Source of the DNA: a virus
DNA: 64,000 bases
Strand: one strand, 5' to 3'
IMG/VR virus record: IMGVR_UViG_3300012003_000002
Coordinates: 1-64,000 of that record
Shown: positions 12,177 to 63,864 of the stretch, in pieces
How the letters are laid out: each line of letters starts with the position of its first letter
Numbering within the stretch: position 1 is the stretch's first letter
The notes under the pieces: generated by a model
Seen by the model: the letters and a program-made list of their open reading frames with translations, nothing else
Database searches by the model: none
Told to the model about the DNA's origin: nothing
Program-made: the position numbers and the translations under genes

Positions 12177-12680
12177 TTAATCTAATAAATTTTTACCAAT
12201 ATAATTATCAATAACTAACATATCGGTACTTAGTTTATAAATATCTAAATTAGTAATAGATTTACCAATTTCTTCTTGTTGTTCACTACAATATCTTAAA
12301 GCAAGTTGATATAAGACATGATTACCTTCTTTAAGAGCTAAAGTAGCTAAATCTTCACATTGTTTAGTAACAATTAATTCATGATCATATGCAGCTTCTA
12401 ATACATCAAGTAAATCATCTACCTCCATTTCTGGAGAAGGAAGTGATTGTAAACATGGTGTAAGACCATAATCTAATAAATAACTTTTTGAAAATCCCGC
12501 ATGAACTAATTCTTCATTTGAATAATTTTTAAATAATTTTGCAAAATTTAAATAACCTTTATTATTTAACCATAAAGATAATTGTTCATATATTCTTGAA
12601 GAATGCTCTTCTTGTTGTATTCTATAATTTAAAGTTTCTACAACTTTATCATTTAATAATTGTTTTCTTTGATCTTCCAT
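12177..12680 (-). CDS. Non-heme ferritin (FtnA-like)
   Basis: 167 aa with ferroxidase ligand pattern QEE..S..Y, EExxH (EELVH), HE, EQQEE. Confidence 0.88.
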   Translation of the reverse strand: MEDQRKQLLNDKVVETLNYRIQQEEHSSRIYEQLSLWLNNKGYLNFAKLFKNYSNEELVHAGFSKSYLLDYGLTPCLQSLPSPEMEVDDLLDVLEAAYDHELIVTKQCEDLATLALKEGNHVLYQLALRYCSEQQEEIGKSITNLDIYKLSTDMLVIDNYIGKNLLD

Positions 12681-33351: not shown

Positions 33352-33873
33352 TTAATATTGTTTATATGCTTCATAATTGTCTAAATTTGGATTTAATATC
33401 CTTTTAGCTAAAGTTCTTTGAAAAGAACGTGGTGGTTTATATCTAAAAAATCTTTTATTTAAATATGAACCTTTACCTTTTAACATTAATATTCTAAATA
33501 CATATTTAGAAGTATGATTATTTAAAAATCTAATAATCAACTTTTTTTCTCTAGCCTCTTCATCATTTTCCCATAATTGAGTTGTTGTTTTCCAATCAAT
33601 TGGATGTGTATTTACAACTTTATTATCTACTAATTTAATACCTCGTTTATTTTTTCTAATACAGAATGTAAATTTAGTTTTAACTGGTGTAAATTCCAAA
33701 TCTTCATTAATTATCTTTTCTACAATTCTTTTATTAAAGTCGTAAACTACTTTATCAAATAAAGTTTTAGATTTAGGTTCTTTAGATTTAGACTTGTAAT
33801 AATTGTAATAATCTTTAATACCAAAATCCGTATTTATCCTACCCTCAGATCTGATATTAATCATTAGCGTCAT
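33352..33873 (-). CDS. crAss IHF-like basic DNA-binding protein
   Basis: PIDWKTT..W..D..A.EKK.IIRF.N.HT..Y pattern; position between ring genes. Confidence 0.65.
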   Translation of the reverse strand: MTLMINIRSEGRINTDFGIKDYYNYYKSKSKEPKSKTLFDKVVYDFNKRIVEKIINEDLEFTPVKTKFTFCIRKNKRGIKLVDNKVVNTHPIDWKTTTQLWENDEEAREKKLIIRFLNNHTSKYVFRILMLKGKGSYLNKRFFRYKPPRSFQRTLAKRILNPNLDNYEAYKQY

Positions 33874-49336: not shown

Positions 49337-50848
49337 TTAGTTTAACAATGATGGAATCATTGATGCAGTTCTAGAAGCATCTTTTACCAATGAACCAACT
49401 CCTTCTACAAGAGCAGTCATTGTTGCAGAATCTTCCATTAATTGCATTGTTCCACCTCTACGACCTGTATAAGGATCTCTAATACCTGCCATATATCCAC
49501 GTAATTCGTCAGAACCTCTAACTTTTACTTTTTGAATATTTGGTTCTTCCATTGAACCGATATAAAGAATATCGTATCTGTAAGATTCAGCTACACCACC
49601 ATCTGGGTGAAGAATTTTATTACGAACTTTATCATCATACATTGGATCGACTTCTAACATTACGTGAATGTTATTAGGAGCTCTATATTCAGTAAATTGG
49701 AATCCTGCACTAAATGCATTATTGTGGAATTTAGAAGATACTTGTTTAATTGCATTTTGGTTTGTATTATCAAATCCTAATGAAGCCCAACCTGAAGCAA
49801 TTTCTGATACAGCTCTATGAAATTGAGCAGCTCCTCTTTCACCTGTACGTAACATAAATTTACGTTGATCCCAATCTAATTTACCTTCTGATAATTCAGA
49901 TAGTAAATCTTCCAACATACGAATAGAAAATCTATTGTAATAAGTGGTATTAGAAACTTCCATTTGTTCACGAATTCCTGAACCAGCTTTAATTTCAATA
50001 TTAGCATTACCTTTATTCAAGAAACGTCCATTTTCATCACGGTTTGTTTTACCAAACATGATAGTACGAGATTTAATACGAGATAAAGCTTTTTCAAATT
50101 GCCAGTAAACTTCCTGCATCCAAGTTGTAGAACTATGTACTTTTCCTGTGTTAGGATCTCTTGTTTCAATACCTGCATGATATACTGGTTGAATTTTACA
50201 ATCAATCATTGCACCTGAAACTTTATGTTCCATACGAATTGAAGTAACAGAATTTCTCATTAAGAAAGGAGAGGTAAATTGAATACCTGCACCTTGAATA
50301 GAAAGTTCATCTTCAACAGGAGCACCCTCAATAGAGAATCTATTTCCTGGTAAAAATTCATCTCCTGGAATACCTAATAGAGATTCTTGACCACCCCATA
50401 CTTCACAAGTATAAACATAGTTAGAACCTTCTTCATAAGGATCTTCAATAATTCTCATTTGATATGTATCTGGTCTATGACCTGCTATCAAATGCATTTT
50501 TGTAAACCATTTTTCAGCGAATACCATTTCAAATGTTGCTCTAGCAGCTCCAACACCGACAGTGTTAGCATCTACAACAGCTCCATTATATCTAGATTCA
50601 ACTAATGCAATACTACGTTCATCAGAACCAACAACTTTCCATACAAAATCATCTGCAGTGGCTATAATTTTTTCAGGAAATAATGATAAGGTTGTATCCA
50701 AATTTTTCATTCCTGAGTTTTGCAACAATACAGTTGTTAATGGTGAAATTAATTGTGGTTGAGAACCAAACAATTGAGAGATGTGATTTTTGAGACTAAG
50801 GCCGCTCCAAGCTTGACTTTTCGTCATAATAAATTTGCCTGCTGACAT
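49337..50848 (-). CDS. Major capsid protein (crAss-type)
   Basis: WSGLSLKNHI..FGSQPQ, GAPVEDELS, GSGIREQM, TGERGAAQF, AGFQFTEYRAPN, GGVAESYRYDI. Confidence 0.93.
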   Translation of the reverse strand: MSAGKFIMTKSQAWSGLSLKNHISQLFGSQPQLISPLTTVLLQNSGMKNLDTTLSLFPEKIIATADDFVWKVVGSDERSIALVESRYNGAVVDANTVGVGAARATFEMVFAEKWFTKMHLIAGHRPDTYQMRIIEDPYEEGSNYVYTCEVWGGQESLLGIPGDEFLPGNRFSIEGAPVEDELSIQGAGIQFTSPFLMRNSVTSIRMEHKVSGAMIDCKIQPVYHAGIETRDPNTGKVHSSTTWMQEVYWQFEKALSRIKSRTIMFGKTNRDENGRFLNKGNANIEIKAGSGIREQMEVSNTTYYNRFSIRMLEDLLSELSEGKLDWDQRKFMLRTGERGAAQFHRAVSEIASGWASLGFDNTNQNAIKQVSSKFHNNAFSAGFQFTEYRAPNNIHVMLEVDPMYDDKVRNKILHPDGGVAESYRYDILYIGSMEEPNIQKVKVRGSDELRGYMAGIRDPYTGRRGGTMQLMEDSATMTALVEGVGSLVKDASRTASMIPSLLN

Positions 50849-51507: not shown

Positions 51508-52590
51508 TTATAAATTTAACACATGACCTGAGAAATTACTATATGTATTTTCATCTTGTGCCCATAATGGAGTACCATTATCTTTTAATTTTGTTTTACG
51601 TGCAATTTGTTCTAAATCTTTTACAGCACTTGATTTAGCACTTATTGATATTTTACTTAAATCTTTAAAACCATTTGTAAGTTCATAAAAATGATACATT
51701 CTAATTTCAAATTCTAATGGATTTTCTCTTCGTTCTTTCATGAATTTATTTTCAAAAGTTCCATCTGGAGATTTACCAACAATATCATTAATTGACTTAT
51801 AAACTTTATCTTGTAAAACTTTATTAGGTTTTAATCCTGAAATTAAATCTTTAGATTCATAAATGGTTTTTTTCATTTGTTCATTTAATCTAGACTGTTC
51901 TAACTTATCTGATTCTAATCTTTCTTTATAAGAATTAGTTTCTTTTTCAATTTCACGATTCTTAAATTCTTTAAGACTTTCTAATGATTCTTCTGCATCT
52001 TCCAATATAGCATCATCACCTAAATCAACTAATCGATTTAACATCCTATTAGCTTTTTTTTCATCTAAACCCTGATTAAGATAATCATCGTAAATTATAC
52101 GTTTGGCTAAATCAATATCATTTTTTAATAAAGAAATATCAATAGAATTTAAATCATTAATTTCTTTTTTAACAGTTCCTATTTTATTTAAATCTAAATT
52201 TGCTAAATAATCATTTAGTCTTAATTCTGCTTGGATATCTAGTTCTTTATTAAAAACATTTGCAAAATCATCAGCAGATTTAATATCTTTTAAATCGATG
52301 TCAAGAGAAGGTAGCAATCCTTGTTCGTGAACAAAAGCGGCTAAAGAAGAATATAGGTTGGAAGAAGACTCACCGCCTTCACTACCTTCATCTTCAACAT
52401 CTTCCTCGTCTACTTCCTCTGAACTATTGTCCTCAACGTGGTTATTATTTTCTAATGTAGTATCTTCTACATTTGTGTTATTATTATTTTCTTCTTCATT
52501 GGTATTGTCATCTTCAGGTACTGCAAAATTAAAGTTTAATTCTTGATTTCCTTCAAATAAACCCATACCTAATTCATTATCGTCTTCCAT
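51508..52590 (-). CDS. Acidic scaffold-like head protein between portal and MCP
   Basis: D/E-rich N-terminus, helical body, ELTNGFKDLSK; crAss synteny. Confidence 0.65.
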   Translation of the reverse strand: MEDDNELGMGLFEGNQELNFNFAVPEDDNTNEEENNNNTNVEDTTLENNNHVEDNSSEEVDEEDVEDEGSEGGESSSNLYSSLAAFVHEQGLLPSLDIDLKDIKSADDFANVFNKELDIQAELRLNDYLANLDLNKIGTVKKEINDLNSIDISLLKNDIDLAKRIIYDDYLNQGLDEKKANRMLNRLVDLGDDAILEDAEESLESLKEFKNREIEKETNSYKERLESDKLEQSRLNEQMKKTIYESKDLISGLKPNKVLQDKVYKSINDIVGKSPDGTFENKFMKERRENPLEFEIRMYHFYELTNGFKDLSKISISAKSSAVKDLEQIARKTKLKDNGTPLWAQDENTYSNFSGHVLNL

Positions 52591-52629: not shown

Positions 52630-52708
52630 CAAATATAATAAATTTTATGGTAAAAGTCAACTAAAAATTACAATATTCTTAGTTGATTAATTTTCGTCCA
52701 TAGCGTTT
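52630..52708 (-). promoter_or_regulatory. Promoter with upstream AAACGCTAT box (head genes)
   Basis: TTGA-N19-TATATTTG (52630-52660); box at 52700-52708. Confidence 0.75.
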
Positions 52709-52714
52709 ATCTTA

Positions 52715-55102
52715 TTATTTTTTCTTAATTCTAGCAATTTTATTTGCTTCTTCTCTTAATTTTACATTATCTGTATGTTTTTTCATATCATCATTTAATG
52801 CTTTTAATTTAAGATTATAATCCTTTCTAGCTTCAGTTATATTAAATTGAAGTTTTTCTTGTGCTAAAGGATCTTTAATTCCATCATCAATAACACTCAC
52901 TCCGTTAATATCTGCAGATAATTCTGCAATATAAACTTTAGTATCATTATCTCTTTGATTTTTTACATCTTCAAGTTCAAGTTTTCTATTTTCTAAATCA
53001 GCAGAAGTAGCATTTGCTTCTTGTTGTGTTTTATTAGCATCTTGTGCTTGTTGAGATTGATTTTGTTGCATTTGTTCTTCCGCCATTTCTAACTTACGTC
53101 TCATATCCATTAATGAAGGACTAAAATAAATATCCATTATTGTAGTCATTGAACCACCATTTTGAATAAATGCTTGAGCATATTGTTTAATAGCATTTTC
53201 AAGTTCCATTATTTTAGGAGTATTTGATACTAATAAACCGTAATCAGACTCTGCAAAAGTTTCACCTTCCATATTTAAAATCTCAATAGTTTGATCATCT
53301 AGTATATACTGCACTTTTTTATTTTCAACATCTTTTAATGCTATTTTAGCAGTTTCTAAAAATGCTTCTAATACTCTAATTTTAACAGCTTCGTGTTGCA
53401 TAAACCAATATTCAGTAATATGACTTGATTGATTTACAGAACGTTCTACACCACCTACAGTTTCACTATTTGAAATTTGTCCTTCACGTTGTCTTGATAC
53501 ACCACAAAGTTCACCCATTTCAACTTTAATAAATTCTAGTAATTGAATATGTTGTTGTATATAAGCACCTGTTTCCATATCAATAGCTCTTCCACCAACA
53601 GTATTCATATTACCTGCAAGTTTACCTGTAGATTGACCATGTTGACCTTCTTTGAATGAATCTACTACAGCAATCTTATTTACTACTGCAAAATGCATCC
53701 ATTTTTCAATTTCCCAGTTAGCTGGTACTTTTGCTAAATCAAGTTCTAATATTTTACCATAGTTTGTAGATATTGCTTTATTAAGTCTATCAAACATTAC
53801 ATCATACATATATTGAAAGTTTTTAGCTCTATCTACTAAAGATACAGATTTACCTTGATTAGTATTATATATTTGACCAATTACACCTAAATGACCTTTA
53901 GATGGGTTATTAGCTTTTACATACTGAACTTGTAAAGGTCTCATTTTAAGATAAATATCTCTACCTAATTTTACACCTTCCCAACCTTCGGATACCCAAA
54001 AGTCTGTAGATTCTTCACCTAAATTTTTATCTACTTTATATTCTTCAGATTCAAATCTAAATTGTTCATCACCATATTCATCATAGAATTTAATCTTTTT
54101 AACTTTACGTAATGATTTCCATCTAACTTTTAATTCTCTAATATTACCATTTTCATCAGTATAGTTAGTATTAAAATAATGACCATTTAATTCAGCCATT
54201 TGAGTCATACTATCATATAATCCAGCAGCATCAGTTCTATCTCTAAATAACGTATGATTATCATAATCTTCAGAGTAAGTACCTCTACTTGTTCTTGTAG
54301 AGTATTCTAATAAATGATCAATTTCATCAGGTTTAAGTTCATCGTAATATTCATCTACTAATTGATTAGGAGATTTATGATCTTCCATAATAATAATATC
54401 AGCATCTTCAAATCTATTTGAATTACCCGTTCTAACAGAATGAACTTTTAATGGATTTAATTTTTGAAAAGTAGGTTCACCATGAGATATATTAACTAAA
54501 TATATTTCTTCTGCAACAAGTAAAGCGTCTTTAAATCCTTCTGTAAATTTCTCAGAAAATTTTAATTCTTGCCAATAATGTCTAAGAATTTGATTTGCCA
54601 TTTTTTCACGAATGTCTTTCCAAGTATATTTCATATATTTACCTAATTCATCCATTTTTTGTTTTAACTCATCATCTTTATAATTTTCTTGTAACATTTG
54701 ACTAAGTTTTTGAAAAAGAAATGTTTTTTTATCTTCTTCTTTCTTAGTAATTGCATCTGGATTAGTTACAATAACAGACCAATCAAATCTACGTTTAATT
54801 TCTTCACCTACTAATAAATCAATTTTAGGAACAATGATAGGTATATGTGGTATCATTTTAGGTACATAACTTGCTTCTAAGTGATGTGGATTAACAACTT
54901 CTGTTAAATCCTGCATATCTAAAATACCATTATAAAGATTATAATTAATAACTTTATTTTTAAATGTACGTCTAATTCTATCATCATGATAAAATGAATG
55001 TTTATCTGAAAAATCTAAATTATCTTTTCTCCATTCTTTATCTTTTTTACTATAAGGTAATCTTTGTCGTGGTTGTTGTATTCTTAAATTACGTACTTCC
55101 AT
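52715..55102 (-). CDS. Portal protein
   Basis: PRQRLPYSKK..EW, NYNLYNG, PKIDLLVGEE.KR, GVSRQREGQI, ETVGGVERS; after TerL. Confidence 0.92.
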   Translation of the reverse strand: MEVRNLRIQQPRQRLPYSKKDKEWRKDNLDFSDKHSFYHDDRIRRTFKNKVINYNLYNGILDMQDLTEVVNPHHLEASYVPKMIPHIPIIVPKIDLLVGEEIKRRFDWSVIVTNPDAITKKEEDKKTFLFQKLSQMLQENYKDDELKQKMDELGKYMKYTWKDIREKMANQILRHYWQELKFSEKFTEGFKDALLVAEEIYLVNISHGEPTFQKLNPLKVHSVRTGNSNRFEDADIIIMEDHKSPNQLVDEYYDELKPDEIDHLLEYSTRTSRGTYSEDYDNHTLFRDRTDAAGLYDSMTQMAELNGHYFNTNYTDENGNIRELKVRWKSLRKVKKIKFYDEYGDEQFRFESEEYKVDKNLGEESTDFWVSEGWEGVKLGRDIYLKMRPLQVQYVKANNPSKGHLGVIGQIYNTNQGKSVSLVDRAKNFQYMYDVMFDRLNKAISTNYGKILELDLAKVPANWEIEKWMHFAVVNKIAVVDSFKEGQHGQSTGKLAGNMNTVGGRAIDMETGAYIQQHIQLLEFIKVEMGELCGVSRQREGQISNSETVGGVERSVNQSSHITEYWFMQHEAVKIRVLEAFLETAKIALKDVENKKVQYILDDQTIEILNMEGETFAESDYGLLVSNTPKIMELENAIKQYAQAFIQNGGSMTTIMDIYFSPSLMDMRRKLEMAEEQMQQNQSQQAQDANKTQQEANATSADLENRKLELEDVKNQRDNDTKVYIAELSADINGVSVIDDGIKDPLAQEKLQFNITEARKDYNLKLKALNDDMKKHTDNVKLREEANKIARIKKK

Positions 55103-55124
55103 TTATCTAATTTTATTTAACTTT

Positions 55125-55204
55125 ACAATATACAACATTTTACTTTTAATTCAAAATGATTTATCATATATTAATAGTATATTTGATTTTCGTTCATAGC
55201 GTTT
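55125..55204 (-). promoter_or_regulatory. Portal promoter with upstream AAACGCTAT box embedded in terL 3' end
   Basis: Variant -7 TATATTGT, TTTG upstream; box at 55196-55204. Confidence 0.6.
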
Positions 55205-57444
55205 GGTTTATTAAAATTTTTATTAAAGAATTTATCATTTGCTAAAGTTTCAACTTGTTTATCTTTATTAGCTATTGCAGATTGTGTTCTTTTATATCTA
55301 TCTTCTCGAAGTATAAATAACATACCACCTGCAGATACTCTATCAAAGTTACCATCTGAATTCCATTTAATACATTCTTCAATATATGCCAAACCTCTTA
55401 TAGTATGTAATTTTAATTTACCAGGATTTTCTTCATCTTCTACAGATGTATTCATCCAATCAGCTTGTAACTTTCTGCCCCATTTATTTACTTCAGCATT
55501 TGCCATTGTACCTTTTGATGTATTACCATAACCCATATCTTTAGTCATTTGCATATCTTTAAGAATTTGAGGTGTGTCACATAATCTAAACAATGCATTC
55601 TTTTTATCAAAGTAACTAAATAAACCTTTTAAGTTTTTTTCATAATTAGCTATAGCATTATAAAATTCTAATGTTCTTAATGCTATTTCATAAGCTTCTT
55701 CTGCCAATCTAGGTCTTCCTGAAAATTCTGCTACAATTCTATCTGTAAATAAATCCATAACTATTATTGAAAATAATGAAGTTCCTGAATCTGCATCGAT
55801 TGGATCAATTCCTGCAATATATCTACCATGTGCTATTTCACCATTTGCGTTTTCAGAAGGCATTTCAAATATTTCTAAACATCCTTCACGATTAGCATTA
55901 TCTTTATCATAACTTCTTAATGGAAATTTATCATTATTTAATCTCCATTTAAGTTTACCATCACTAGTTCTAACTATTTCTCCAACATAATGTTCAGCTA
56001 AAAAAGATTCTTTTCTTACCATTATAGTTTCTAAATAATCTTTAAGATCTGATACTGGAAATACAGTTCCCTCAGTACGCATAATAGCTTCTTGAGGAGT
56101 AATTGGTTCCTCAGCTTTCTTTTGAGTAATTGCAGAAGGATCTGACGAATTATATTTAATTTTATATCTATTCGTAAGAATTTGTAATAAAGCTTTAATT
56201 ACATCAGGTTCACCACATTCTTCATCATAACAACCATTACGATTTAAATATCCACCCCAAAAGAATCCACAAGTAGTATCTCCTCTAGTATTTTTATCAA
56301 ATACATTAGGAATACCATATATTTCATAAGCAGCAGTATTGTAAAATAGTTTTTCAGAACCTTCAAATGAACCTCCTTCAACTCCACCTGTTCCGCCTGC
56401 TAACATAAATCCAAAACCTACATCTCCATCCTCAACAGCTTTTAAATTCACATTCCAAGCTTTTTCAAGATTAGGAAATAAACCATCTTCTTCATAATGA
56501 ATAAGTGGTCCACGAATACCCCTAGCTTTATCAGGATTATCTTTTAATGATATTCCGTGTACAGAAGATAATAATCCTTGACGTACACCATATTCATCTT
56601 TAAATCCTAATTGTATTTCTAAAGTACTACCAGCTCTATCTACAGTTCTCATTCTAGGTAAAGGTGTATGTTTTGCAATCCAGTCAAGAGTATCTACAAC
56701 TTTACCCCAAATACCTTTATCACCAGCTAAGAAAGTTTTTTCAGATGCTAAGTGAAAATTAGGGTTTCCTGTTCCAGGATATACATACATATTACAAGGT
56801 GATATTGCTCCCATTTTAAACGAAAATCCAACCCCCCTTGTTTTAAGAAGTTTACCGTGCATACCACCATCTCTAGCTTGTTGCATATAATGATAGAATA
56901 AATAATCTCCTAACCAAGGTTTTGGAAATTTTTGTACACGTTCTCCTTTTTGTTTCCTGCCTGTACTTTCAGTTTTAACAATTTCAACTAACCATATTGG
57001 ACTATAATTCCAATAAAAATATAATTGACCTGGAATCCATTCACCATCACTTTCTCTAACTAATCCATATTTCCATCTACGTTGTTCTTCTTTCCAGAAT
57101 TCAGCATATGTAGATTTGGGATTTGGATTAGGTGTTAAATGAGTATATTTATTATGTTTTTCAAAGAATAATGCACGTTCTCTAAAGAAATCCATATCTT
57201 CTAAAATATGAGGATTTGTTAAATCTACATTAACTCTACTATCATTATAAAACTTAGTTTCTCTAGGTCTATTTTTAGCATAACCACGAATATCTTCAGT
57301 AGCTACTAATCTTCTAATAAATTCTATAGAAGATAAAAAGTCTATTAATTCCAACCAAACTTCTCTTGGGACTGAGTTTTTAATTTCATCAGTTAAAGGA
57401 GTTTGAAATTTATTCATTTTATAAAGGGATTTTATTTCATCCAT
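55171..57444 (-). CDS. terL: Terminase large subunit
   Basis: LKTRGVGFS Walker A, YEEDG Walker B, GGTGG, YIAGIDP, NFDRVSA. Confidence 0.95.
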   Translation of the reverse strand: MDEIKSLYKMNKFQTPLTDEIKNSVPREVWLELIDFLSSIEFIRRLVATEDIRGYAKNRPRETKFYNDSRVNVDLTNPHILEDMDFFRERALFFEKHNKYTHLTPNPNPKSTYAEFWKEEQRRWKYGLVRESDGEWIPGQLYFYWNYSPIWLVEIVKTESTGRKQKGERVQKFPKPWLGDYLFYHYMQQARDGGMHGKLLKTRGVGFSFKMGAISPCNMYVYPGTGNPNFHLASEKTFLAGDKGIWGKVVDTLDWIAKHTPLPRMRTVDRAGSTLEIQLGFKDEYGVRQGLLSSVHGISLKDNPDKARGIRGPLIHYEEDGLFPNLEKAWNVNLKAVEDGDVGFGFMLAGGTGGVEGGSFEGSEKLFYNTAAYEIYGIPNVFDKNTRGDTTCGFFWGGYLNRNGCYDEECGEPDVIKALLQILTNRYKIKYNSSDPSAITQKKAEEPITPQEAIMRTEGTVFPVSDLKDYLETIMVRKESFLAEHYVGEIVRTSDGKLKWRLNNDKFPLRSYDKDNANREGCLEIFEMPSENANGEIAHGRYIAGIDPIDADSGTSLFSIIVMDLFTDRIVAEFSGRPRLAEEAYEIALRTLEFYNAIANYEKNLKGLFSYFDKKNALFRLCDTPQILKDMQMTKDMGYGNTSKGTMANAEVNKWGRKLQADWMNTSVEDEENPGKLKLHTIRGLAYIEECIKWNSDGNFDRVSAGGMLFILREDRYKRTQSAIANKDKQVETLANDKFFNKNFNKPNAMNENQIYY

Positions 57445-58916
57445 TCTTCAGAATTTAATACTACAGCTTCAGTACTGAGTATAACTTTAGCAACTGATAC
57501 TGCATTTTCTAATGCACATCTAGTTACTTTAAGAGGGTCAATAATATTTAAATCAAAACCTATACCTGGAGTTTGATCTTTTATATTACAACCATTTTGT
57601 TTTATTGTATTTAATGGTGCAAAAAAACAACTATAAATAGAATCTATTAAATTTTTAGAATCAAAGGTATCATAAAAATTTAAATTAAAAACACATTGTT
57701 TTAAAGCTATTCCAGCACCTTCTACAATACCTTCTTCTAATGCACAAGCTACAGCTTTAACAGCATCATCATATCTATCAAAACGTTCTTTTACTTCAAG
57801 TTCTGATTTACCACCAACTTTAATAATAGATATTTTACCTTTAAGATATTCAATTCTTTGTTTAATTAAATCTTTATCGTGTTCAGCTAACTCTATATTC
57901 TTAGATAATTCAGTTAGAGATTCTAATTTAATAGAAACATCTACAGAATCATCTTTAACTAATATACTATTGTTTTTAGATATTTTACAAGATTGTAATT
58001 TACCAAGAATATCTGTGTTATAAGATTTAGATATATCTGTAATTAATGTACTCCCAGTAAACTCACATAGATCTTGCAATAGATCTTTACGGTGTTTAGA
58101 GAAGCCTGGCGACTTAATAATACATATTGGTAATGATTGTGATAGAACTAAAGTTTCAAGCTTTCTAAGAGCTTGTTCGTGAATATCTTCAACAATTATT
58201 AATAGTGAATTATTAGGTTGTTGTGTCAATTCTAATATAGCTCTAAAGTTTTCTAACTTTTCTAATTTACCATCAATAATTAAAGTGTTAACATTAGTAA
58301 ATTCACAAATACCTTTAGATTGATTTGTAATAAAATGTTTAGAGAAGTAACTCACTGGAAGTGCCATTCCTGGTAAAGTATCTAACACATCTTCTGTATT
58401 AGAACTCTCTTCAATTTTAACTATATCAGAATGGTTATAAGCCTGTTGAATAAGCTCACCAATCTGTAGATCGTTATTAGCAGATATGCTAGCAACGTGT
58501 TTAATATCTTCATGTTTTAATTCTCGTGAATTAAGTTTTAGTTGTTCAATAACTTTTGGTATAATCTCATCAAAAGCTTTGTTAATATCTACAGATTTAA
58601 AATCTTTTAAATTATTAACAAATGCTGTAGCTAATACTATTGATGTTGTTGTACCATCTCCCGCTTCATCAGCTGTTTTTTTAGCAACCTGTTTAATTAA
58701 GTTTGCACCAATATTCTTTAATGGGTCTTTAAATGTGATTTGTTCTGCAACGGATACTCCATCTTTAGTTATAATATATTCCCCATATTTGTTTTTATTA
58801 GGTATAATTACAGTAGCACCATTTGGTCCCATTGTAGAACTAACAGCTCTATTTAAATCATTAATACCTTCTATAATCTTATCTCTCGCTTCTTTTCCAA
58901 AATATAATTCTTCCAT
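57432..58916 (-). CDS. groEL: Phage GroEL-like chaperonin
   Basis: STMGPNG, ITKDGVSVA, AGDGTTT, ISANND, KSPGF, IKVGG.SE.E.KE..DR.DDA, IIDPLKV; no GGM tail. Confidence 0.93.
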   Translation of the reverse strand: MEELYFGKEARDKIIEGINDLNRAVSSTMGPNGATVIIPNKNKYGEYIITKDGVSVAEQITFKDPLKNIGANLIKQVAKKTADEAGDGTTTSIVLATAFVNNLKDFKSVDINKAFDEIIPKVIEQLKLNSRELKHEDIKHVASISANNDLQIGELIQQAYNHSDIVKIEESSNTEDVLDTLPGMALPVSYFSKHFITNQSKGICEFTNVNTLIIDGKLEKLENFRAILELTQQPNNSLLIIVEDIHEQALRKLETLVLSQSLPICIIKSPGFSKHRKDLLQDLCEFTGSTLITDISKSYNTDILGKLQSCKISKNNSILVKDDSVDVSIKLESLTELSKNIELAEHDKDLIKQRIEYLKGKISIIKVGGKSELEVKERFDRYDDAVKAVACALEEGIVEGAGIALKQCVFNLNFYDTFDSKNLIDSIYSCFFAPLNTIKQNGCNIKDQTPGIGFDLNIIDPLKVTRCALENAVSVAKVILSTEAVVLNSEEWMK

Positions 58917-59077
58917 TATCGTTTTAATTTTAAATTAGCAACATCTATATCTAAAAAATAACCTAAATCTTCAACATATATTAATTTAAAAGGTCCTTTA
59001 TATTTTTCCAACTTATCTTTAAAAGCATTAAACTCTGGTTGTATATCTTTTAAAAAATCTTCTATTGTTATTTCCAT
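58916..59077 (-). CDS. Small hypothetical protein (53 aa; not in ORF track)
   Basis: MEITIEDFLKD...KLKR; TAATG coupling to groEL. Confidence 0.55.
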   Translation of the reverse strand: MEITIEDFLKDIQPEFNAFKDKLEKYKGPFKLIYVEDLGYFLDIDVANLKLKR

Positions 59078-59078
59078 A

Positions 59079-59648
59079 TTATTCAAATTTTAAACCTCCT
59101 TCGTATATTCCCATAGCCTGTTGACCTTTCATACGTCCTTCAGTTTCTATTTTCTCTTTAATTAATTCTTTTTCTGCTGCTTTTAAATCCTGCATCACAA
59201 CTTTAATTTTACTAATACCACCTACAATAGTTGTTAATGTAGTTACTGGTTTGTTTCTATCATCACGTTCTTCTAATAGCTCTTTAGTCTTAGTTAAGTA
59301 TTCTGATATATCATTAGCAGCTAATAAAGCATTTTTATACAATTTACCAATTACAGTTAAACTTCGTTCTTCATAGAAGTTAATTGCATCTTGCATTACA
59401 GAATCTATCTTCCAATTATCAGGAAGTTGTAAATCTTTTATAATTTCTTCAGTTCTAAATTTAATATCTATAATTAAATAATCAGATTTAATATCTGTAT
59501 AGTAATATATAAATAACATTTCTTTTAATGCTAAATCTTTATTACGACTCTTATCTCGTTTTAATATTTTTTTAAAGGGTTCTAATCCCCATATTTGGTC
59601 CTCAACAGTGAGAACTCCATCTTTTAATAGGAAACCATTCATCGGCAT
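59079..59648 (-). CDS. Conserved crAss protein upstream of terL (possible small terminase)
   Basis: RDKSRNK..A.KE..FIY..D..SDY; synteny. The TerS role is inference. Confidence 0.55.
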   Translation of the reverse strand: MPMNGFLLKDGVLTVEDQIWGLEPFKKILKRDKSRNKDLALKEMLFIYYYTDIKSDYLIIDIKFRTEEIIKDLQLPDNWKIDSVMQDAINFYEERSLTVIGKLYKNALLAANDISEYLTKTKELLEERDDRNKPVTTLTTIVGGISKIKVVMQDLKAAEKELIKEKIETEGRMKGQQAMGIYEGGLKFE

Positions 59649-59664
59649 TAATTTTGTTTTATAC

Positions 59665-59702
59665 CTATAAAACCCAACTAGATTTCTCAGGTTGGGTTAT
59701 AG
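59665..59702 (-). terminator. Hairpin / terminator
   Basis: AACCCAAC...GTTGGGTT followed by TTAT. Confidence 0.55.
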
Positions 59703-59706
59703 TTTA

Positions 59707-59880
59707 TTATTTTTTAACTTTTGATAGTTCTTCTTTAACTTCTACAGGTTCTTGTAAAGCATTTTTAACTACATTTAAAGCTGCTAGAATTGTAGCAGAT
59801 TCTTCTAATTTAAAAGCACCTTTAGAATTTGCTAAATTTAAAGCTTGTTCAATAATTTGTATTCCTTGTTCTTTTTCCAT
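59707..59880 (-). CDS. Small helical protein (57 aa; not in ORF track)
   Basis: MEKEQGIQIIEQALNLANSKGAFKLEESATILAAL... Confidence 0.7.
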   Translation of the reverse strand: MEKEQGIQIIEQALNLANSKGAFKLEESATILAALNVVKNALQEPVEVKEELSKVKK

Positions 59881-59898
59881 ATTTAATTTAATTATAAT

Positions 59899-60279
59899 TT
59901 ATTCGTTTGTTTGTAAATCTTTAGAATTTGTAAATCTTGTTTTAATTAATCTATCTTCAATAATAGCAAATATCTTACCATCAAATTCAATAGGATCTAA
60001 TTTAATTGTGGTAAAATCTTCATGTGAATTATTAGGATTAATTTGTTTACTTAACATTTTATCTAAATCAAGTCTAATCTTATCACCTACTTCGATATTA
60101 TGACAGTTTGGACCTTTTGCTATAATGTATTGAAATTGACTCATTGCATTATCAGATAAATCTAAACTATCTAATGTATCTTCTGTATTTAAAGTAATTA
60201 CTACTTTGTTAAACATTGGTTGCTCCAACCATTCTTTACTAATCTCTAAAGCATCATATGCTGTTACGTTCTCTTTCAT
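59899..60279 (-). CDS. groES: GroES-like co-chaperonin
   Basis: QPMFNKVVIT (cf. RPLHDRVIV), IIAKGP..IEVGDKI, IEFDGKIFAIIEDRLI. Confidence 0.72.
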   Translation of the reverse strand: MKENVTAYDALEISKEWLEQPMFNKVVITLNTEDTLDSLDLSDNAMSQFQYIIAKGPNCHNIEVGDKIRLDLDKMLSKQINPNNSHEDFTTIKLDPIEFDGKIFAIIEDRLIKTRFTNSKDLQTNE

Positions 60280-60553
60280 CTTTTTCTTCCTTACTTTTTT
60301 GTAATCTATATTTATGTTTATCTACTATTTCTCCTGATGTATATACTTTCCCTAAGTATTTAAAAAAGAAGTTTGTTTTTAAATTATCAATCTCTTCCGC
60401 AGTCATTGTATCTAATAACATTTTCCTAATCTCCTCATACATAAACCTGAATTGTGATTCGACTATCTCTCTTACTTCACAATCTCTAAGATTATTATTT
60501 AAACCTATTGTATGAATAATATCATTTACTTTCTTTTCTTGAATTTTATCCAT
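60254..60553 (-). CDS. HU/IHF-like protein
   Basis: Two helices then NFFFKYLGKVY strand-turn. Confidence 0.5.
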   Translation of the reverse strand: MDKIQEKKVNDIIHTIGLNNNLRDCEVREIVESQFRFMYEEIRKMLLDTMTAEEIDNLKTNFFFKYLGKVYTSGEIVDKHKYRLQKSKEEKDERERNSI

Positions 60554-60932
60554 CTATAATTTTAAAATTAATATTAATAGTAAATACTTTATTCTTTTTA
60601 TTCATTTGAGGAATATATACAGAAGATATTTCATTATCAATTATAACCTTATTTTTTCTAAGTTTTGTATATATATTTTCTAAACCTTGTGTTGTAATAC
60701 CTAATTCATCTGTAATTAAAATTTTAGTATCATAATCAAATACTGTCTTCCATAAAATTTTATTATTAGTAATCTCTTTAGAAAACTGATAATGATAATA
60801 TAATAACAAAGCAACTACTGTATATTGTTGTTTCTGAAGTTTATGAAAAGGTTGTAAAAACTCAATATATCTGAAAAAGAAATTTTTAACCTTTACATTT
60901 ATAGTTGCATTTTTAACATTCTCCACTTTCAT
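60546..60932 (-). CDS. Winged-HTH DNA-binding protein
   Basis: ITDELGITTQGLENIYTKLRKNKVI helix-turn-helix. Confidence 0.65.
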   Translation of the reverse strand: MKVENVKNATINVKVKNFFFRYIEFLQPFHKLQKQQYTVVALLLYYHYQFSKEITNNKILWKTVFDYDTKILITDELGITTQGLENIYTKLRKNKVIIDNEISSVYIPQMNKKNKVFTININFKIIDG

Positions 60933-61095
60933 TTTTTTTTATAAAACCTTCTCTAACTACTTTAACTTCTGAATTTAATACATATTGTATTTCTCCTAAT
61001 TTTAATTTATAAGAATTACATTCATTAGTTTTATTTTCTAATTGTTGTAATAAATATTTAATTAAATCTTGATGTTGAATTATTAAATCTTCCAT
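60913..61095 (-). CDS. Hypothetical coiled-coil protein
   Basis: Operon-packed ORF. Confidence 0.55.
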   Translation of the reverse strand: MEDLIIQHQDLIKYLLQQLENKTNECNSYKLKLGEIQYVLNSEVKVVREGFIKKNESGEC

Positions 61096-61101
61096 TTATA
61101 A

Positions 61102-61428
61102 TTAATATTTAGGTTTAATCTTCTGTTCTTTATTATATTCAAATATGTTTTTATATTCTTTTACTTCGTTTACTGAATTACATCGTTGACATATTTCATT
61201 ACCATCATCATCTACTTCATATTGATTTGGTACAACTAATGTACCACAATGTTTACAAGCAAAGACTGGTTCGTTATCATAATCTTTCTTATTCATTTTA
61301 ATTTCATTTATTTTATCTTTTATATCTTGTTGCCATTCTGTATCATAGAATGGAAACGGGCTCATCTTATTATGATACTCCACATACTTATATAGTGAGT
61401 TAAGATGTTTGAGTATTTGTTTGTTCAT
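61102..61428 (-). CDS. Zn-ribbon protein
   Basis: YDNEPVFACKHC...CQRCNS. Confidence 0.7.
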   Translation of the reverse strand: MNKQILKHLNSLYKYVEYHNKMSPFPFYDTEWQQDIKDKINEIKMNKKDYDNEPVFACKHCGTLVVPNQYEVDDDGNEICQRCNSVNEVKEYKNIFEYNKEQKIKPKY

Positions 61429-61603
61429 ATTTCGTTTTAATATTTAATAGTATTAACCATCCTTCATCTTCTTTACTTACATTTACAGTATAACTAAACC
61501 TTGGATATTTACCTGTAAATAATTCCATTTTAGTTTGAAAGGTATCTAATTGATCTAATGCTTTTTTTAAATCCTTTTCAAAGATTGTATATTCTTTATT
61601 CAT
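61400..61603 (-). CDS. Hypothetical protein
   Basis: Operon-packed ORF. Confidence 0.6.
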   Translation of the reverse strand: MNKEYTIFEKDLKKALDQLDTFQTKMELFTGKYPRFSYTVNVSKEDEGWLILLNIKTKYEQTNTQTS

Positions 61604-61886
61604 TTATTTTATTATCTATTTTATATAATTCCCAATCTATCTTACTCATTAGATCTGGAAAACGATCCCCATTATTACAGGATTTACTAACGTACATTTT
61701 TCCTGGCACATCACATCCGCAGTATTTACATTGTTTTGTAATCATACAATCATCTTTACATTGTAGCATTCTATAAGATACTTGTTCTTGTAAGTGTTTA
61801 GATTCAAATCCTAATTTATTTAAAAACATTTTAGAATTACCTTCAATATATTGTTTTATATTATTAATAGTTATTTTATGCTTCAT
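61596..61886 (-). CDS. Cys-rich metal-binding protein
   Basis: R..CKDDC...QCKYCGC....K.....C pattern. Confidence 0.65.
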   Translation of the reverse strand: MKHKITINNIKQYIEGNSKMFLNKLGFESKHLQEQVSYRMLQCKDDCMITKQCKYCGCDVPGKMYVSKSCNNGDRFPDLMSKIDWELYKIDNKINE

Positions 61887-62121
61887 TACTAAGTCGACTA
61901 AGTATTAAACTTTTCTCCATTGAATCTAAATCTCTACTAATTAACTCTGGTACAATATTATCAATATTATCTTCTGTAACAGGTTCTGGTAATATTTTAA
62001 GATAATCAGATAATTCATTAATCTGTTTTAGTTTAGTATAAAATATTTTAACTTGTTTTTTAGTGTTAAGTTTATCTAAAACATTTTTCTTTCTAATTCC
62101 GTTTTTATTGAATGTATGCAT
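61876..62121 (-). CDS. Hypothetical protein
   Basis: Operon-packed ORF. Confidence 0.6.
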   Translation of the reverse strand: MHTFNKNGIRKKNVLDKLNTKKQVKIFYTKLKQINELSDYLKILPEPVTEDNIDNIVPELISRDLDSMEKSLILSRLSNEA

Positions 62122-62123
62122 TT

Positions 62124-62327
62124 TTATAATCTATTAAATTTTAAATATTTAGGATTTTCTTTACTCCATCTAATTCTATATTCTTCTAATTCATTATCAG
62201 TTTTAGTTGGAAATATATTTCTCCAATATTCTAATTCTTTAGGATTGTTCTTATTATTCATAAATATTCTATTTTCGTATTTAATTTCTTCTTCAGTTCT
62301 TAAATCTATAAGTTCTCCGTTTCTCAT
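62124..62327 (-). CDS. Hypothetical protein
   Basis: TAATG-coupled ORF. Confidence 0.6.
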   Translation of the reverse strand: MRNGELIDLRTEEEIKYENRIFMNNKNNPKELEYWRNIFPTKTDNELEEYRIRWSKENPKYLKFNRL

Positions 62328-62599
62328 TAAAATGTAGTATTTAAAATTTTAGTATCTATTATTGTATCTCCAGCTTTATTAAATATTAAATGTTTCTTTA
62401 AGTATCCAGTCTTGTTTCTAGCAAAGATTTGAACTGTTGGTATATTACCCTCTCCTATAAAGATCCCTACGTTTAAATCATTAATTCTGTTACCTCTCCA
62501 TTTCTTAGTATAATGATTATACATATTGAAAATATCTTTTTGATTATCTATAATATGATTCTCTATCTCGGTAACTTTATTTTGTATATTTATTAACAT
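62327..62599 (-). CDS. Hypothetical protein
   Basis: Operon-packed ORF. Confidence 0.6.
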   Translation of the reverse strand: MLINIQNKVTEIENHIIDNQKDIFNMYNHYTKKWRGNRINDLNVGIFIGEGNIPTVQIFARNKTGYLKKHLIFNKAGDTIIDTKILNTTF

Positions 62600-62744
62600 C
62601 TTTATCTTTTATTGGTTTAATTATTAAATTACAGTTTATACAATTTCCTGTAAAACTATTTGGTCTTGGTAAATTACATCTACATTCTAATTGTTGAAAA
62701 TTATTCCATTCTTCATTAAAATAAATTCTTTTGTCTTCTTCCAT
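62577..62744 (-). CDS. Small Cys-containing protein (55 aa; not in ORF track)
   Basis: MEEDKRIYF...CRC...CINC; TAATG coupling. Confidence 0.55.
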   Translation of the reverse strand: MEEDKRIYFNEEWNNFQQLECRCNLPRPNSFTGNCINCNLIIKPIKDKDVNKYTK

Positions 62745-62986
62745 TATAAGGTTTCTTTAAATCTATTTACTAAGAAGTTAGTAAAATCATTATTTTTAAA
62801 TACTCCATTTAAATTAATATACATTCTAATATCTATTGAAGTCTTATCTGGTAAAGTTACTCTACATTTATTTTGTATTAATAACTTTGACCAATCTTCA
62901 AATCCAATAGGTTGTTGATCGTTATAAACAATCTCTATATTAAAATCACAATCTTGTTCTAGTTTATTACATTTAAAACCTGTCAT
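62744..62986 (-). CDS. Hypothetical protein, first gene after the 63010 promoter
   Basis: ORF directly downstream of promoter. Confidence 0.6.
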   Translation of the reverse strand: MTGFKCNKLEQDCDFNIEIVYNDQQPIGFEDWSKLLIQNKCRVTLPDKTSIDIRMYINLNGVFKNNDFTNFLVNRFKETL

Positions 62987-63009
62987 TAAGCTTATTTTTA
63001 AATTCTATA

Positions 63010-63040
63010 CAAAGGTAATCAATTAAAATGACATATGCAA
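63010..63040 (-). promoter_or_regulatory. Bacteroidota-type promoter
   Basis: TTGC-N19-TACCTTTG. Confidence 0.75.
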
Positions 63041-63102
63041 GCTTTTTATCATTTATTTTACAAAAATATGTAAAATAATTTATTTAAATGACAATTAGAC
63101 AT

Positions 63103-63134
63103 AAAAAAACCCTTCTCAATTAAGAGAAAGGTTT
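63103..63134 (-). terminator. Intrinsic terminator
   Basis: AAACCTTTCTC-TTAATT-GAGAAGGGTTTTTTT. Confidence 0.85.
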
Positions 63135-63447
63135 ATATATAAGTTACCCATAACCATAATATTGTAATTTACAAATAATTAGTTAATAATTAGTTAATAA
63201 TTAAACACAAAAGGGTTTCCCAAGAAATCTAATTCTTAGGAACCACTTGGCTTATATAGTTTGTTGAAGTCGTCATACCCTTAAACCCGTTATCTATTCA
63301 CATATCTTCTTTTGCCCTAGATTGTATATTAAATATACTGTGAAATAGCAACAACCACCTATATAAGTTGCGTAATTATGTCTTGTTATTAAATTGTCTA
63401 ATATTAATTCTGTTTAAAACTGTCTAAATTAATTATCTTTTTAATAA
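63103..63447 (-). ncRNA. Candidate stand-alone structured ncRNA (about 345 nt)
   Basis: Own promoter and terminator; ATG-ORFs found are 15 aa or less; stems CTTATATAG/CTATATAAG, CTATTTCACA/TGTGAATAG, GGTTCCTAAGAA/TTCTTGGGAAACC. Confidence 0.6.
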
Positions 63448-63452
63448 CAGTA

Positions 63453-63531
63453 CAAAGATACAACATTTATTTGTAAATTCCTAATAAAAAGTAATTTATT
63501 TTACATAAATTGTTAATCACCTATAGCGTTT
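63453..63531 (-). promoter_or_regulatory. Promoter with upstream AAACGCTAT box
   Basis: TAGG-N19-TATCTTTG (63453-63483); box at 63523-63531. Confidence 0.78.
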
Positions 63532-63534
63532 ATG

Positions 63535-63864
63535 TTATTTCTTATTTAAGAACTTATCTATTTTATTAAATATCCAACCTGTTAAGTAAGCTTGCGATTC
63601 ATCATTATCAATATCTAACTCAACACATCTATCTTTAAATATATAATTAACTAAGTGAGTTACTTCATGTGCTATAATAGATCCTTCACTATATTCAAAT
63701 GCTATAATATATTCACTATGTTTATTAGGAACTCTCATTGTAACTGCACCATAATCTGATAAATCAATTGTTTTATACTTTTTAGTTATATACGATAAGT
63801 CTTTATCTAATATTATAGTTAATTTACATTGATAAATTGGTATTTTAATGGTTTTCTTTCTCAT
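63535..63864 (-). CDS. Small zincin-like HEXXH protein
   Basis: IIAHEVTH...DESQAYL. Confidence 0.7.
   Translation of the reverse strand: MRKKTIKIPIYQCKLTIILDKDLSYITKKYKTIDLSDYGAVTMRVPNKHSEYIIAFEYSEGSIIAHEVTHLVNYIFKDRCVELDIDNDESQAYLTGWIFNKIDKFLNKK

Follow-up and report, generated by a model that had tools for sequence, protein, structure and literature searches.

We describe here a short DNA box with the core GCTAT that stands at a fixed distance upstream of three putative promoters in the IMG/VR virus record IMGVR_UViG_3300012003_000002. The window, by which we mean the whole stretch of DNA that was analysed, comprises bases 1-64000 of this 97,561-base record and has a G+C content of about 26%; by sequence comparison its portal-terL region is closest to that of phi14:2, a phage of Cellulophaga, and of further crAss-like members of the Steigviridae. 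Minus-strand genes span 7397 to approximately 64489, with the remaining genes on the plus strand, and the minus-strand order is genes for proteins of 128, 99 and 126 amino acids (aa), a Cpn60-like gene, terL, portal, a g092-like gene, a gene for a 199-aa protein and the gene for the major capsid protein (MCP). The boxes, the core promoters with their -33 and -7 elements, and the genes and the unit free of open reading frames (ORFs) that concern us most are as follows.

55196-55204, minus strand: box A, AAACGCTAT, core G at 55200, within the last terL codons.
55126-55154, minus strand: core promoter A, with -33 TTG at 55154-55152 and an imperfect -7 element, TATATTG, at 55132-55126; serves portal.
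52700-52708, minus strand: box B, AAACGCTAT, core G at 52704, a few nucleotides (nt) after the tandem portal stops TAA TAA.
52630-52660, minus strand: core promoter B, with -33 TTG at 52660-52658 and -7 TATATTTG at 52637-52630.
63523-63531, minus strand: box C, AAACGCTAT, core G at 63527, 3 nt past the stop of the ORF at 63535-63864.
63453-63502, minus strand: core promoter C, with AAAATA at 63502-63497, -33 TTAGG ending at 63481 and -7 TATCTTTG at 63460-63453.
52715-55102, minus strand: portal gene, served by promoter A; its DNA is 68.7% identical to that of the phi14:2 portal gene g093.
55171-57444, minus strand: terL, whose variable C-terminal tail reads through box A.
51508-52590, minus strand: g092-like gene, its protein 34% identical to phi14:2 g092.
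49337-50848, minus strand: MCP gene (Pfam Crass_capsid, E 4e-167).
63103-63447, minus strand: ORF-free unit driven by promoter C, with an intrinsic terminator at 63134-63107; a candidate non-coding RNA.

Read on the plus strand the box is ATAGCGTTT, which occurs in the window at 52700, 55196 and 63523 only; the full genome holds three forward copies and no reverse copy, all three being in the sense of the genes. Shuffling of the window gave an expectation of 0.29 copies and reached three or more in 0 of 100 shuffles, and one-mismatch variants of the box show no enrichment (9 observed against 15 expected). At each of the three sites, counting upstream from the G that ends the -7 element, the near edge of the box is reached after 70 nt and the G of its GCTAT after exactly 74 nt. 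When GCTAT followed by TAnnTTTG was counted at all distances from 20 to 140 nt in this genome, three pairs fell at 74 nt and at most one at any other distance. These results bear out much of a sequence-only reading of this DNA, which had pointed to the three copies at a constant 70 nt, to an 18-mer with one mismatch at two of them (52691-52708 and 55187-55204), to the position of one copy in the coding end of terL (55196-55204 lies inside the terL ORF) and to the service of portal, the MCP operon and a candidate non-coding RNA by the marked promoters, which matches the gene order and the ORF-free unit; it had also called for a motif scan of the whole genome, in which no copy beyond these three was found.

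It should be noted that the motif was picked after the sequence had been read, in an AT-rich genome in which octamers resembling the -7 element are common (104 in the window, the chance level), and that chance, coding constraint or a recently duplicated cassette of no function might on that account be invoked. Set against this are the three exact copies where 0.29 are expected, together with the nature of the regions themselves: they share nothing other than the box and the -33 and -7 elements, and are therefore not copies of one cassette. The behaviour of the box in related phages, described below, argues in the same direction, with a spacing peak that recurs across about 60 genomes and a conservation that is independent of reading frame, and we consider an origin of this kind so improbable that it can practically be set aside.

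The relatives in question are 67 loci from a portal search of IMG/VR, with 52-93% portal identity and phi14:2 included. The core GCTAT(T/G) is present at matching places in essentially all of them: upstream of portal (site A), directly after the portal stop (site B), and 8-14 kb farther upstream, before an ORF-free unit (site C). About 60 relatives have the same three sites, down to 52% portal identity, and 59 keep the box after the portal stop, where the context is either TAAacGCTAT or TAGCTAT, with the stop forming part of the motif in the latter. When the 67 loci are pooled, GCTAT precedes TAnnTTTG by 74 nt 78 times, by 75 nt six times, by 73 nt three times and by 76 nt once, with counts at other distances mostly between 0 and 6 (up to 14 at one) and a flat distribution on the antisense strand. 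Once imperfect -7 forms are included, the spacing is 74 nt at 121 of the 139 sites and 73-76 nt at the others, so that the conservation of spacing that the sequence-only reading had proposed to look for is indeed found. Despite this fixed spacing, the sequence between the box and the core promoter elements is not conserved. The consensus of the box is AAAnGCTAT[T/G]A, in which the core GCTAT is invariant. A strict form of the pattern, run on five complete genomes, returned sites B and C plus one likely chance match, and the reversed control pattern returned 0 matches in the same five.

Site A coincides with the end of terL, and the reading frame in which the core falls is informative. Among unique terL C-terminal tails, 26 have the core in phase 1 (these read Ala-Ile or Ala-Met across it), two have it in phase 2, one of them that of phi14:2 (AAA-CGC-TAT-TAA), a single tail has it in phase 3, and in a further seven it overlaps or follows the stop. 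As the core is found in all three codon phases or past the stop, the constraint is on the DNA and not on the protein, and coding constraint is ruled out as the cause of the box. At two loci (L024 and L029) box A and its promoter are located approximately 750-770 nt upstream of portal with an extra gene between promoter and portal; the box there remains with the promoter at the terL end.

Copies of the box within one genome also resemble each other beyond the core. Over nine core-flanking positions, sites A and B of the same genome agree at 7.1 on average, compared with 4.97 +/- 0.24 after shuffling of genomes; 0 of 10,000 shuffles reach the observed value, in a statistic that ignores phylogeny. 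Agreement is strongest at -1, +5, +7 and +8, and lineages with C, A or T at -1 carry the same base at both sites. This pattern fits co-evolution with a single factor that reads all copies, or gene conversion between the sites.

How the box relates to known promoters can be judged from phi14:2, in which early genes are transcribed by the virion polymerase and middle and late genes need the rifampicin-sensitive host polymerase, according to the text of the preprint (Drobysheva et al., bioRxiv 10.1101/2020.03.07.982082). That text describes an ‘extended tripartite motif’ ahead of the middle genes g070, g075, g108 and g110, and similar motifs ahead of homologues of the late genes g092 and g093 (bioRxiv 10.1101/2020.03.07.982082). 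The promoters described here have in common with it the core of -33 TTG and -7 TAnnTTTG, ahead of the g092 and g093 (portal) homologues. Phi14:2 itself carries the box at P092 and P093 and nowhere else, each time 75 nt from the G of the -7 element; it is absent from the published middle promoters P070, P075, P108 and P110, that is, from the four promoters that built the published motif. The box is thus confined to promoters of the P092/P093 type plus one more; its GCTAT lies 25 nt farther upstream than the tripartite motif appears to reach, and the text of the preprint has no mention of it (bioRxiv 10.1101/2020.03.07.982082). On these sequence comparisons, the box would constitute a fourth element, upstream of the tripartite promoter, which marks the late-gene promoters and one further promoter.

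The core promoters downstream of the boxes are not all alike. Promoter B, which serves the g092-like gene, the gene for the 199-aa protein and the MCP gene, has a complete -7 element. The -7 element of promoter A is one T short of TAnnTTTG, an imperfect form that is kept throughout the close lineage; in other lineages site A has TATATTTG or TATATTAG. Promoter C has a full middle-type core and the top weight-matrix score in the genome, where six sites score at least 14 (63453, 35554, 52630, 64511, 28488 and, on the plus strand, 97391); the weaker promoters at 19659, 63010 and 55126 were identified by direct reading and not by this threshold. Among the promoters found in either way, only 52630, 55126 and 63453 have the box. 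No box is present upstream of those at 19659, 28488, 35554 and 63010, as the sequence-only reading had said and as direct reading of these promoters confirmed. A scan with a sigma-70-type consensus was uninformative (98 sites against 108 expected). The -33 TTG stands about 20 nt upstream of the -7 element; measured to the core G, the G of the -33 element (TTG or TAGG) is at a distance of 46 nt in nearly every B and C site and of 46-48 nt in most A sites.

A further block, AAAATA, is found 49 nt before the -7 G at our promoters 19659, 28488, 35554, 63010 and 63453 and at phi14:2 P070 and P075, and we take this to be the third block of the published tripartite motif as it can be read from the last two. 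It is missing from promoters A and B and from phi14:2 P092 and P093, which accordingly look incomplete on their own. Across unique sites of the relatives AAAATA is present at 14/15 C sites, 18/46 B sites and 7/48 A sites, so that box-marked promoters are often incomplete by the standard of middle promoters.

Two side observations concern these cores. The promoter at 63010-63045 on the minus strand (GCTTGCATATGTCATTTTAATTGATTACCTTTG) closely resembles the phi14:2 middle promoter P108 (GTTTGCATATGTCAAATATTTTACGTAGTTTTG); the two look homologous, which would anchor the middle-promoter class in this genome. At one locus (L021, approximately 12396-12480) box B is kept and the -7 element reads TATCTTTA, a change of G to A, and the site B promoter there may be weakened or drifting.

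The composition of the cores bears on the sign of any regulation. A negative regulator or timer, for instance an early or middle phage protein, could occupy the box and keep these promoters off until late in infection, and the complete cores of promoter C and of many B sites, which should fire unaided, are what such a scheme would predict; the arguments from geometry and conservation apply to a repressor equally well. A site centred approximately 45 bp upstream of the -33 element is, though, badly placed to block polymerase, and the lack of AAAATA at promoters A and B and at P092 and P093 fits promoters that are in need of help. We regard repression as an unlikely function of the box.

The 3' end of portal carries a second structural feature, and the neighbourhood of the box with gene ends raises the question of a role in RNA.

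52646-52702, minus strand: two-tier hairpin that starts inside box B and whose 3' arm covers the -33 element; minimum free energy -13.7 kcal/mol, z -3.0.

In 27 of 41 unique relatives the site B hairpin has an energy of -12 kcal/mol or less, and its arms, read by eye, vary by lineage and stay complementary (CAACTAAGAAT/ATTTTTAGTTG, TTCCAAATATTAAT/ATTAATGTTTGGAA and CAAGGATTAA/TTAATCCTTG); RNAalifold over all lineages returned no common site B structure, as the stems do not line up with one another. The hairpin has the look of a structure that terminates the portal message or forms its 3' end. In the window, sites A and C are free of any stable hairpin (z +0.4 and +0.9), and some A sites of other lineages do possess one. 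Being strong at site B only, the hairpin was rejected as the general element. No known RNA or tRNA was found near the three box sites.

An RNA-level signal at the 3' end of the upstream gene, acting in processing, stability or anti-termination in the manner of a nut-like boxA plus stem-loop, would explain why every copy is in the sense orientation and at, or at most 30 nt from, the stop of the upstream gene, and why at site B a lineage-variable yet complementary hairpin begins inside the box. The nut sites of phage lambda consist of boxA and a boxB hairpin, and the likeness to site B lies in a short box followed by a hairpin, GCTAT(T) being faintly similar to boxA CGCTCTT; the difference is that sites A and C have no hairpin and that the box is upstream of its promoter and so outside that transcript. 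Such a signal leaves the fixed distance to the -7 DNA element unexplained, and other gene ends and terminators are without the box. The spacing is the same with or without a hairpin, and what stays constant is how far the box lies from a promoter element in the DNA; this points to a function in initiation, on the DNA duplex, and an RNA signal seems to us very unlikely.

The unit downstream of site C was read in the window and in L008, L010, L020, L021, L028, L030, L035, L037, L038, L041, L048, L050 and L053. The slot is ORF-free in 14 relatives, with no ORF of at least 30 aa for approximately 270-400 nt in nearly all, and in the relatives it mostly ends in a terminator-like hairpin or a T run. 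It is occupied by two unrelated sequence families, that of the window conserving GGTATGACGACTTC, AAGCCAAG and GGGAAACC and the second comprising L008, L020, L035 and L053. Comparison of the unit with Rfam gave no match.

The distribution of the arrangement outside these phages was examined with the pattern TAAACGCTAT-N61-63-TATNTTTG, which represents one 10-mer variant. In IMG/VR, 29 of the 32 matches on crAss-like contigs are at 74 nt, as against 3 of 45 other matches, which mostly belong to homologous coding-sequence families at 73 nt. Among the 120 matches listed for cellular genomes, 28, 42 and 50 are at 73, 74 and 75 nt, respectively; the listed Bacteroidota matches divide 11, 10 and 11 over the same distances, with a -33 element in place in 1 of 32. 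Among the matches listed nothing points to a regulon of the host or to use of the arrangement by unrelated phages, and the box arrangement is restricted to this clade.

These figures are relevant to the possibility that the reader of the box is a host protein, either a transcription factor or the C-terminal domain of the polymerase alpha subunit, and that the phage has copied a host accessory site. A host reader that is itself conserved would explain well why GCTAT stays the same across deeply diverged phages. The even spread of spacings in cellular genomes tells against it, weakly, being drawn from the matches listed for one 10-mer variant, as do the absence of the arrangement from unrelated phages in the IMG/VR scan, the flanks that drift between lineages and stay alike within a genome, and the different sequence that gut relatives carry at that place. 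We consider a host reader improbable.

The gut relatives crAss001, IAS virus and cr116_1 (Asinivirinae) have no GCTAT box. Common to them is CAGTAAATTTAGT, which runs across the terL stop on the minus strand (at 5982 in L074, cr116_1; 5875 in L075, IAS virus; and 7930 in L076, crAss001) and is followed by a hairpin and then the portal promoter. The distance from its first C to the -7 G is 72 nt in cr116_1, 71 nt in IAS virus and 81 nt in crAss001, the last being longer by about one helical turn. It is possibly a counterpart of the GCTAT box, likewise upstream of the promoter but different in sequence.

The following genes encode proteins that have been considered as readers of the box, or lie beside them.

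60546-60932, minus strand: 128-aa winged-helix-like protein, candidate box-binding factor; homologue of crAss001 Gp13 and phi14:2 g098.
60254-60553, minus strand: 99-aa protein, with 29% identity over 62 residues to crAss001 Gp14, annotated ‘HU’.
33352-33873: 173-aa protein, homologue of phi14:2 g073, annotated ‘IHF subunit’.
59899-60279, minus strand: gene for a 126-aa protein, located where crAss001 has its ‘10 kDa chaperonin’.
57432-58916, minus strand: Cpn60/GroEL-like gene (Pfam E 5e-42), adjoining terL on its upstream side.

The GroEL gene of phi14:2 is several genes farther upstream than this Cpn60-like gene.

The 128-aa protein shares 41% identity with Gp13 of crAss001, a protein annotated ‘VpsT-like regulator’, and every relative with sufficient flanking sequence encodes it upstream of terL. 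Its AlphaFold2 model (predicted local distance difference test, pLDDT, 88.3; predicted template modelling score 0.81) has helices at residues 57-64, 67-77 and 81-93 followed by short strands at 97-102. VIA-align of the model placed winged-helix domains at the top, with the LexA DNA-binding domain, a plasmid initiator and the DnaD N-terminal domain at Z 7.0-7.4 and MarR at Z 6.7, all of which are below the tool's caution line of 8; with Foldseek the best E value was about 1, which is not significant, and no Pfam, PHROG or PDB sequence match was found. Ten small upstream proteins searched against Pfam and PHROGs likewise gave no DNA-binding family. A DNA-binding fold for the 128-aa protein is plausible on the strength of its model. 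In GCTAT phages the predicted recognition helix has the sequence xLQNxLT, and in the box-less gut phages HFQVIMG, a single split that hints at a tie between recognition helix and type of box. The winged helix-turn-helix protein that the sequence-only reading had proposed as a candidate is thereby strengthened in its predicted fold and its kinship with Gp13, with fold scores that stay below threshold. Of the two ‘IHF-like’ proteins that it had also named, the 99-aa protein keeps a weak similarity to HU and the 173-aa protein its homology to g073; the HU/IHF (integration host factor) fold is unconfirmed for the former, where the model is poor and all-helical (pLDDT 66) and unsuited to a structure search, and the latter has no Pfam match.

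Taken together, we put it at slightly better than even that the box, lying at about -80, is bound by a regulator which the phage encodes and which is probably an activator; the site would then be an addition to the tripartite promoter already published. According to this model, the box would be a regulatory site in double-stranded DNA and would add a fourth, outermost block to three promoters of the host RNA polymerase. One protein acting in trans, which the phage most likely encodes and expresses from its middle genes, would bind the asymmetric box on one face of the helix and help the host sigma-A RNA polymerase at the -33/-7 core, with higher late expression of portal, the g092-MCP operon and the non-coding RNA as the outcome. 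The geometry, the frame-independent conservation, the concerted copies and the coincidence with the two phi14:2 late-gene promoters support the proposal of the sequence-only reading that a phage activator acts at about -80; that a protein binds here, that it activates, and that the phage supplies it are what we infer from this pattern. A host factor, a negative regulator and an RNA signal are less well supported than a phage-encoded regulator.

The closest analogue in principle is late promoter A3 of Bacillus phage phi29, where the regulator p4 binds at about -82 and assists polymerase with the host primary sigma factor through upstream contact and DNA bending. Common to both are a late promoter, the host polymerase and a site near -80, and no kinship of sequence or protein is implied. 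However, p4 recognises inverted repeats in dimeric form and a -35 box is missing from A3, whereas the GCTAT box is single and asymmetric with no conserved dyad partner and the -33 TTG is conserved. Promoters assisted by IHF, such as lambda pL and ilvPG, have their site near -85 to -90; here an asymmetric site of approximately 11-13 bp with an A-rich 5' flank stands at about -80, in phages that carry genes annotated as HU- or IHF-like. The box AAAnGCTATKA fails to match the IHF site WATCAANNNNTTR, and an ATCAA 15 nt downstream of the core is present at sites A and B of the window only, lacks TTR and is not conserved in relatives. Nor does the box fit a UP element, an A/T-only tract at about -40 to -60, as it is located at about -74 to -83 and has an invariant G and C; AAAATA, at -49 from the -7 G, fits better than the box.

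Several points weigh against a phage-encoded activator. Promoter C, with the best weight-matrix score and a complete middle-type core, should need none, and the AAAATA block is retained at the many B sites counted above. Phi14:2 is without the third box site, and the late class of P092 and P093 is taken from the text of the preprint (bioRxiv 10.1101/2020.03.07.982082). A single asymmetric site approximately 45 bp upstream of the -33 element, with no variant one helical turn away, is unusual for a classical activator. Gene conversion could account for the concerted flanks of A and B, as measured by a statistic blind to phylogeny. The suggestion in the sequence-only reading that host polymerase is switched onto the head genes holds in part: the portal and capsid promoters are marked, and promoter C with its middle-type core makes this not simply a head-gene switch.

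A more specific version of the activator model can be put forward as a tentative possibility, and one that we think has a fair way to go before it would be the likely answer. In this version the GCTAT box would be the cis-element of the middle-to-late switch in this environmental crAss-like clade, bound by the winged-helix protein of the g098/Gp13 family, perhaps together with a neighbouring small protein, and the sigma-A polymerase of the Bacteroidota host would be handed from one asymmetric site, rigidly placed at about -80, to the portal, capsid and late non-coding RNA promoters.

Few known phages are as abundant as the crAss-like ones, and published work assigns their early genes to a virion polymerase and their middle and late genes to that of the host. 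In the papers that we read on their transcription we found no account of what separates late from middle genes, and no mention of the box. The box sets the promoters of portal and the capsid operon apart from middle promoters, and phi14:2, a cultivable model, carries it, which makes the box a testable candidate for the late-gene switch. For the sigma-A polymerase of Bacteroidota it would be one of few examples of accessory promoter architecture and, if activation by a winged-helix protein at about -80 proves true, would bring a geometry not known for that polymerase. In uncultured relatives, the box offers a practical marker for the annotation of late promoters.

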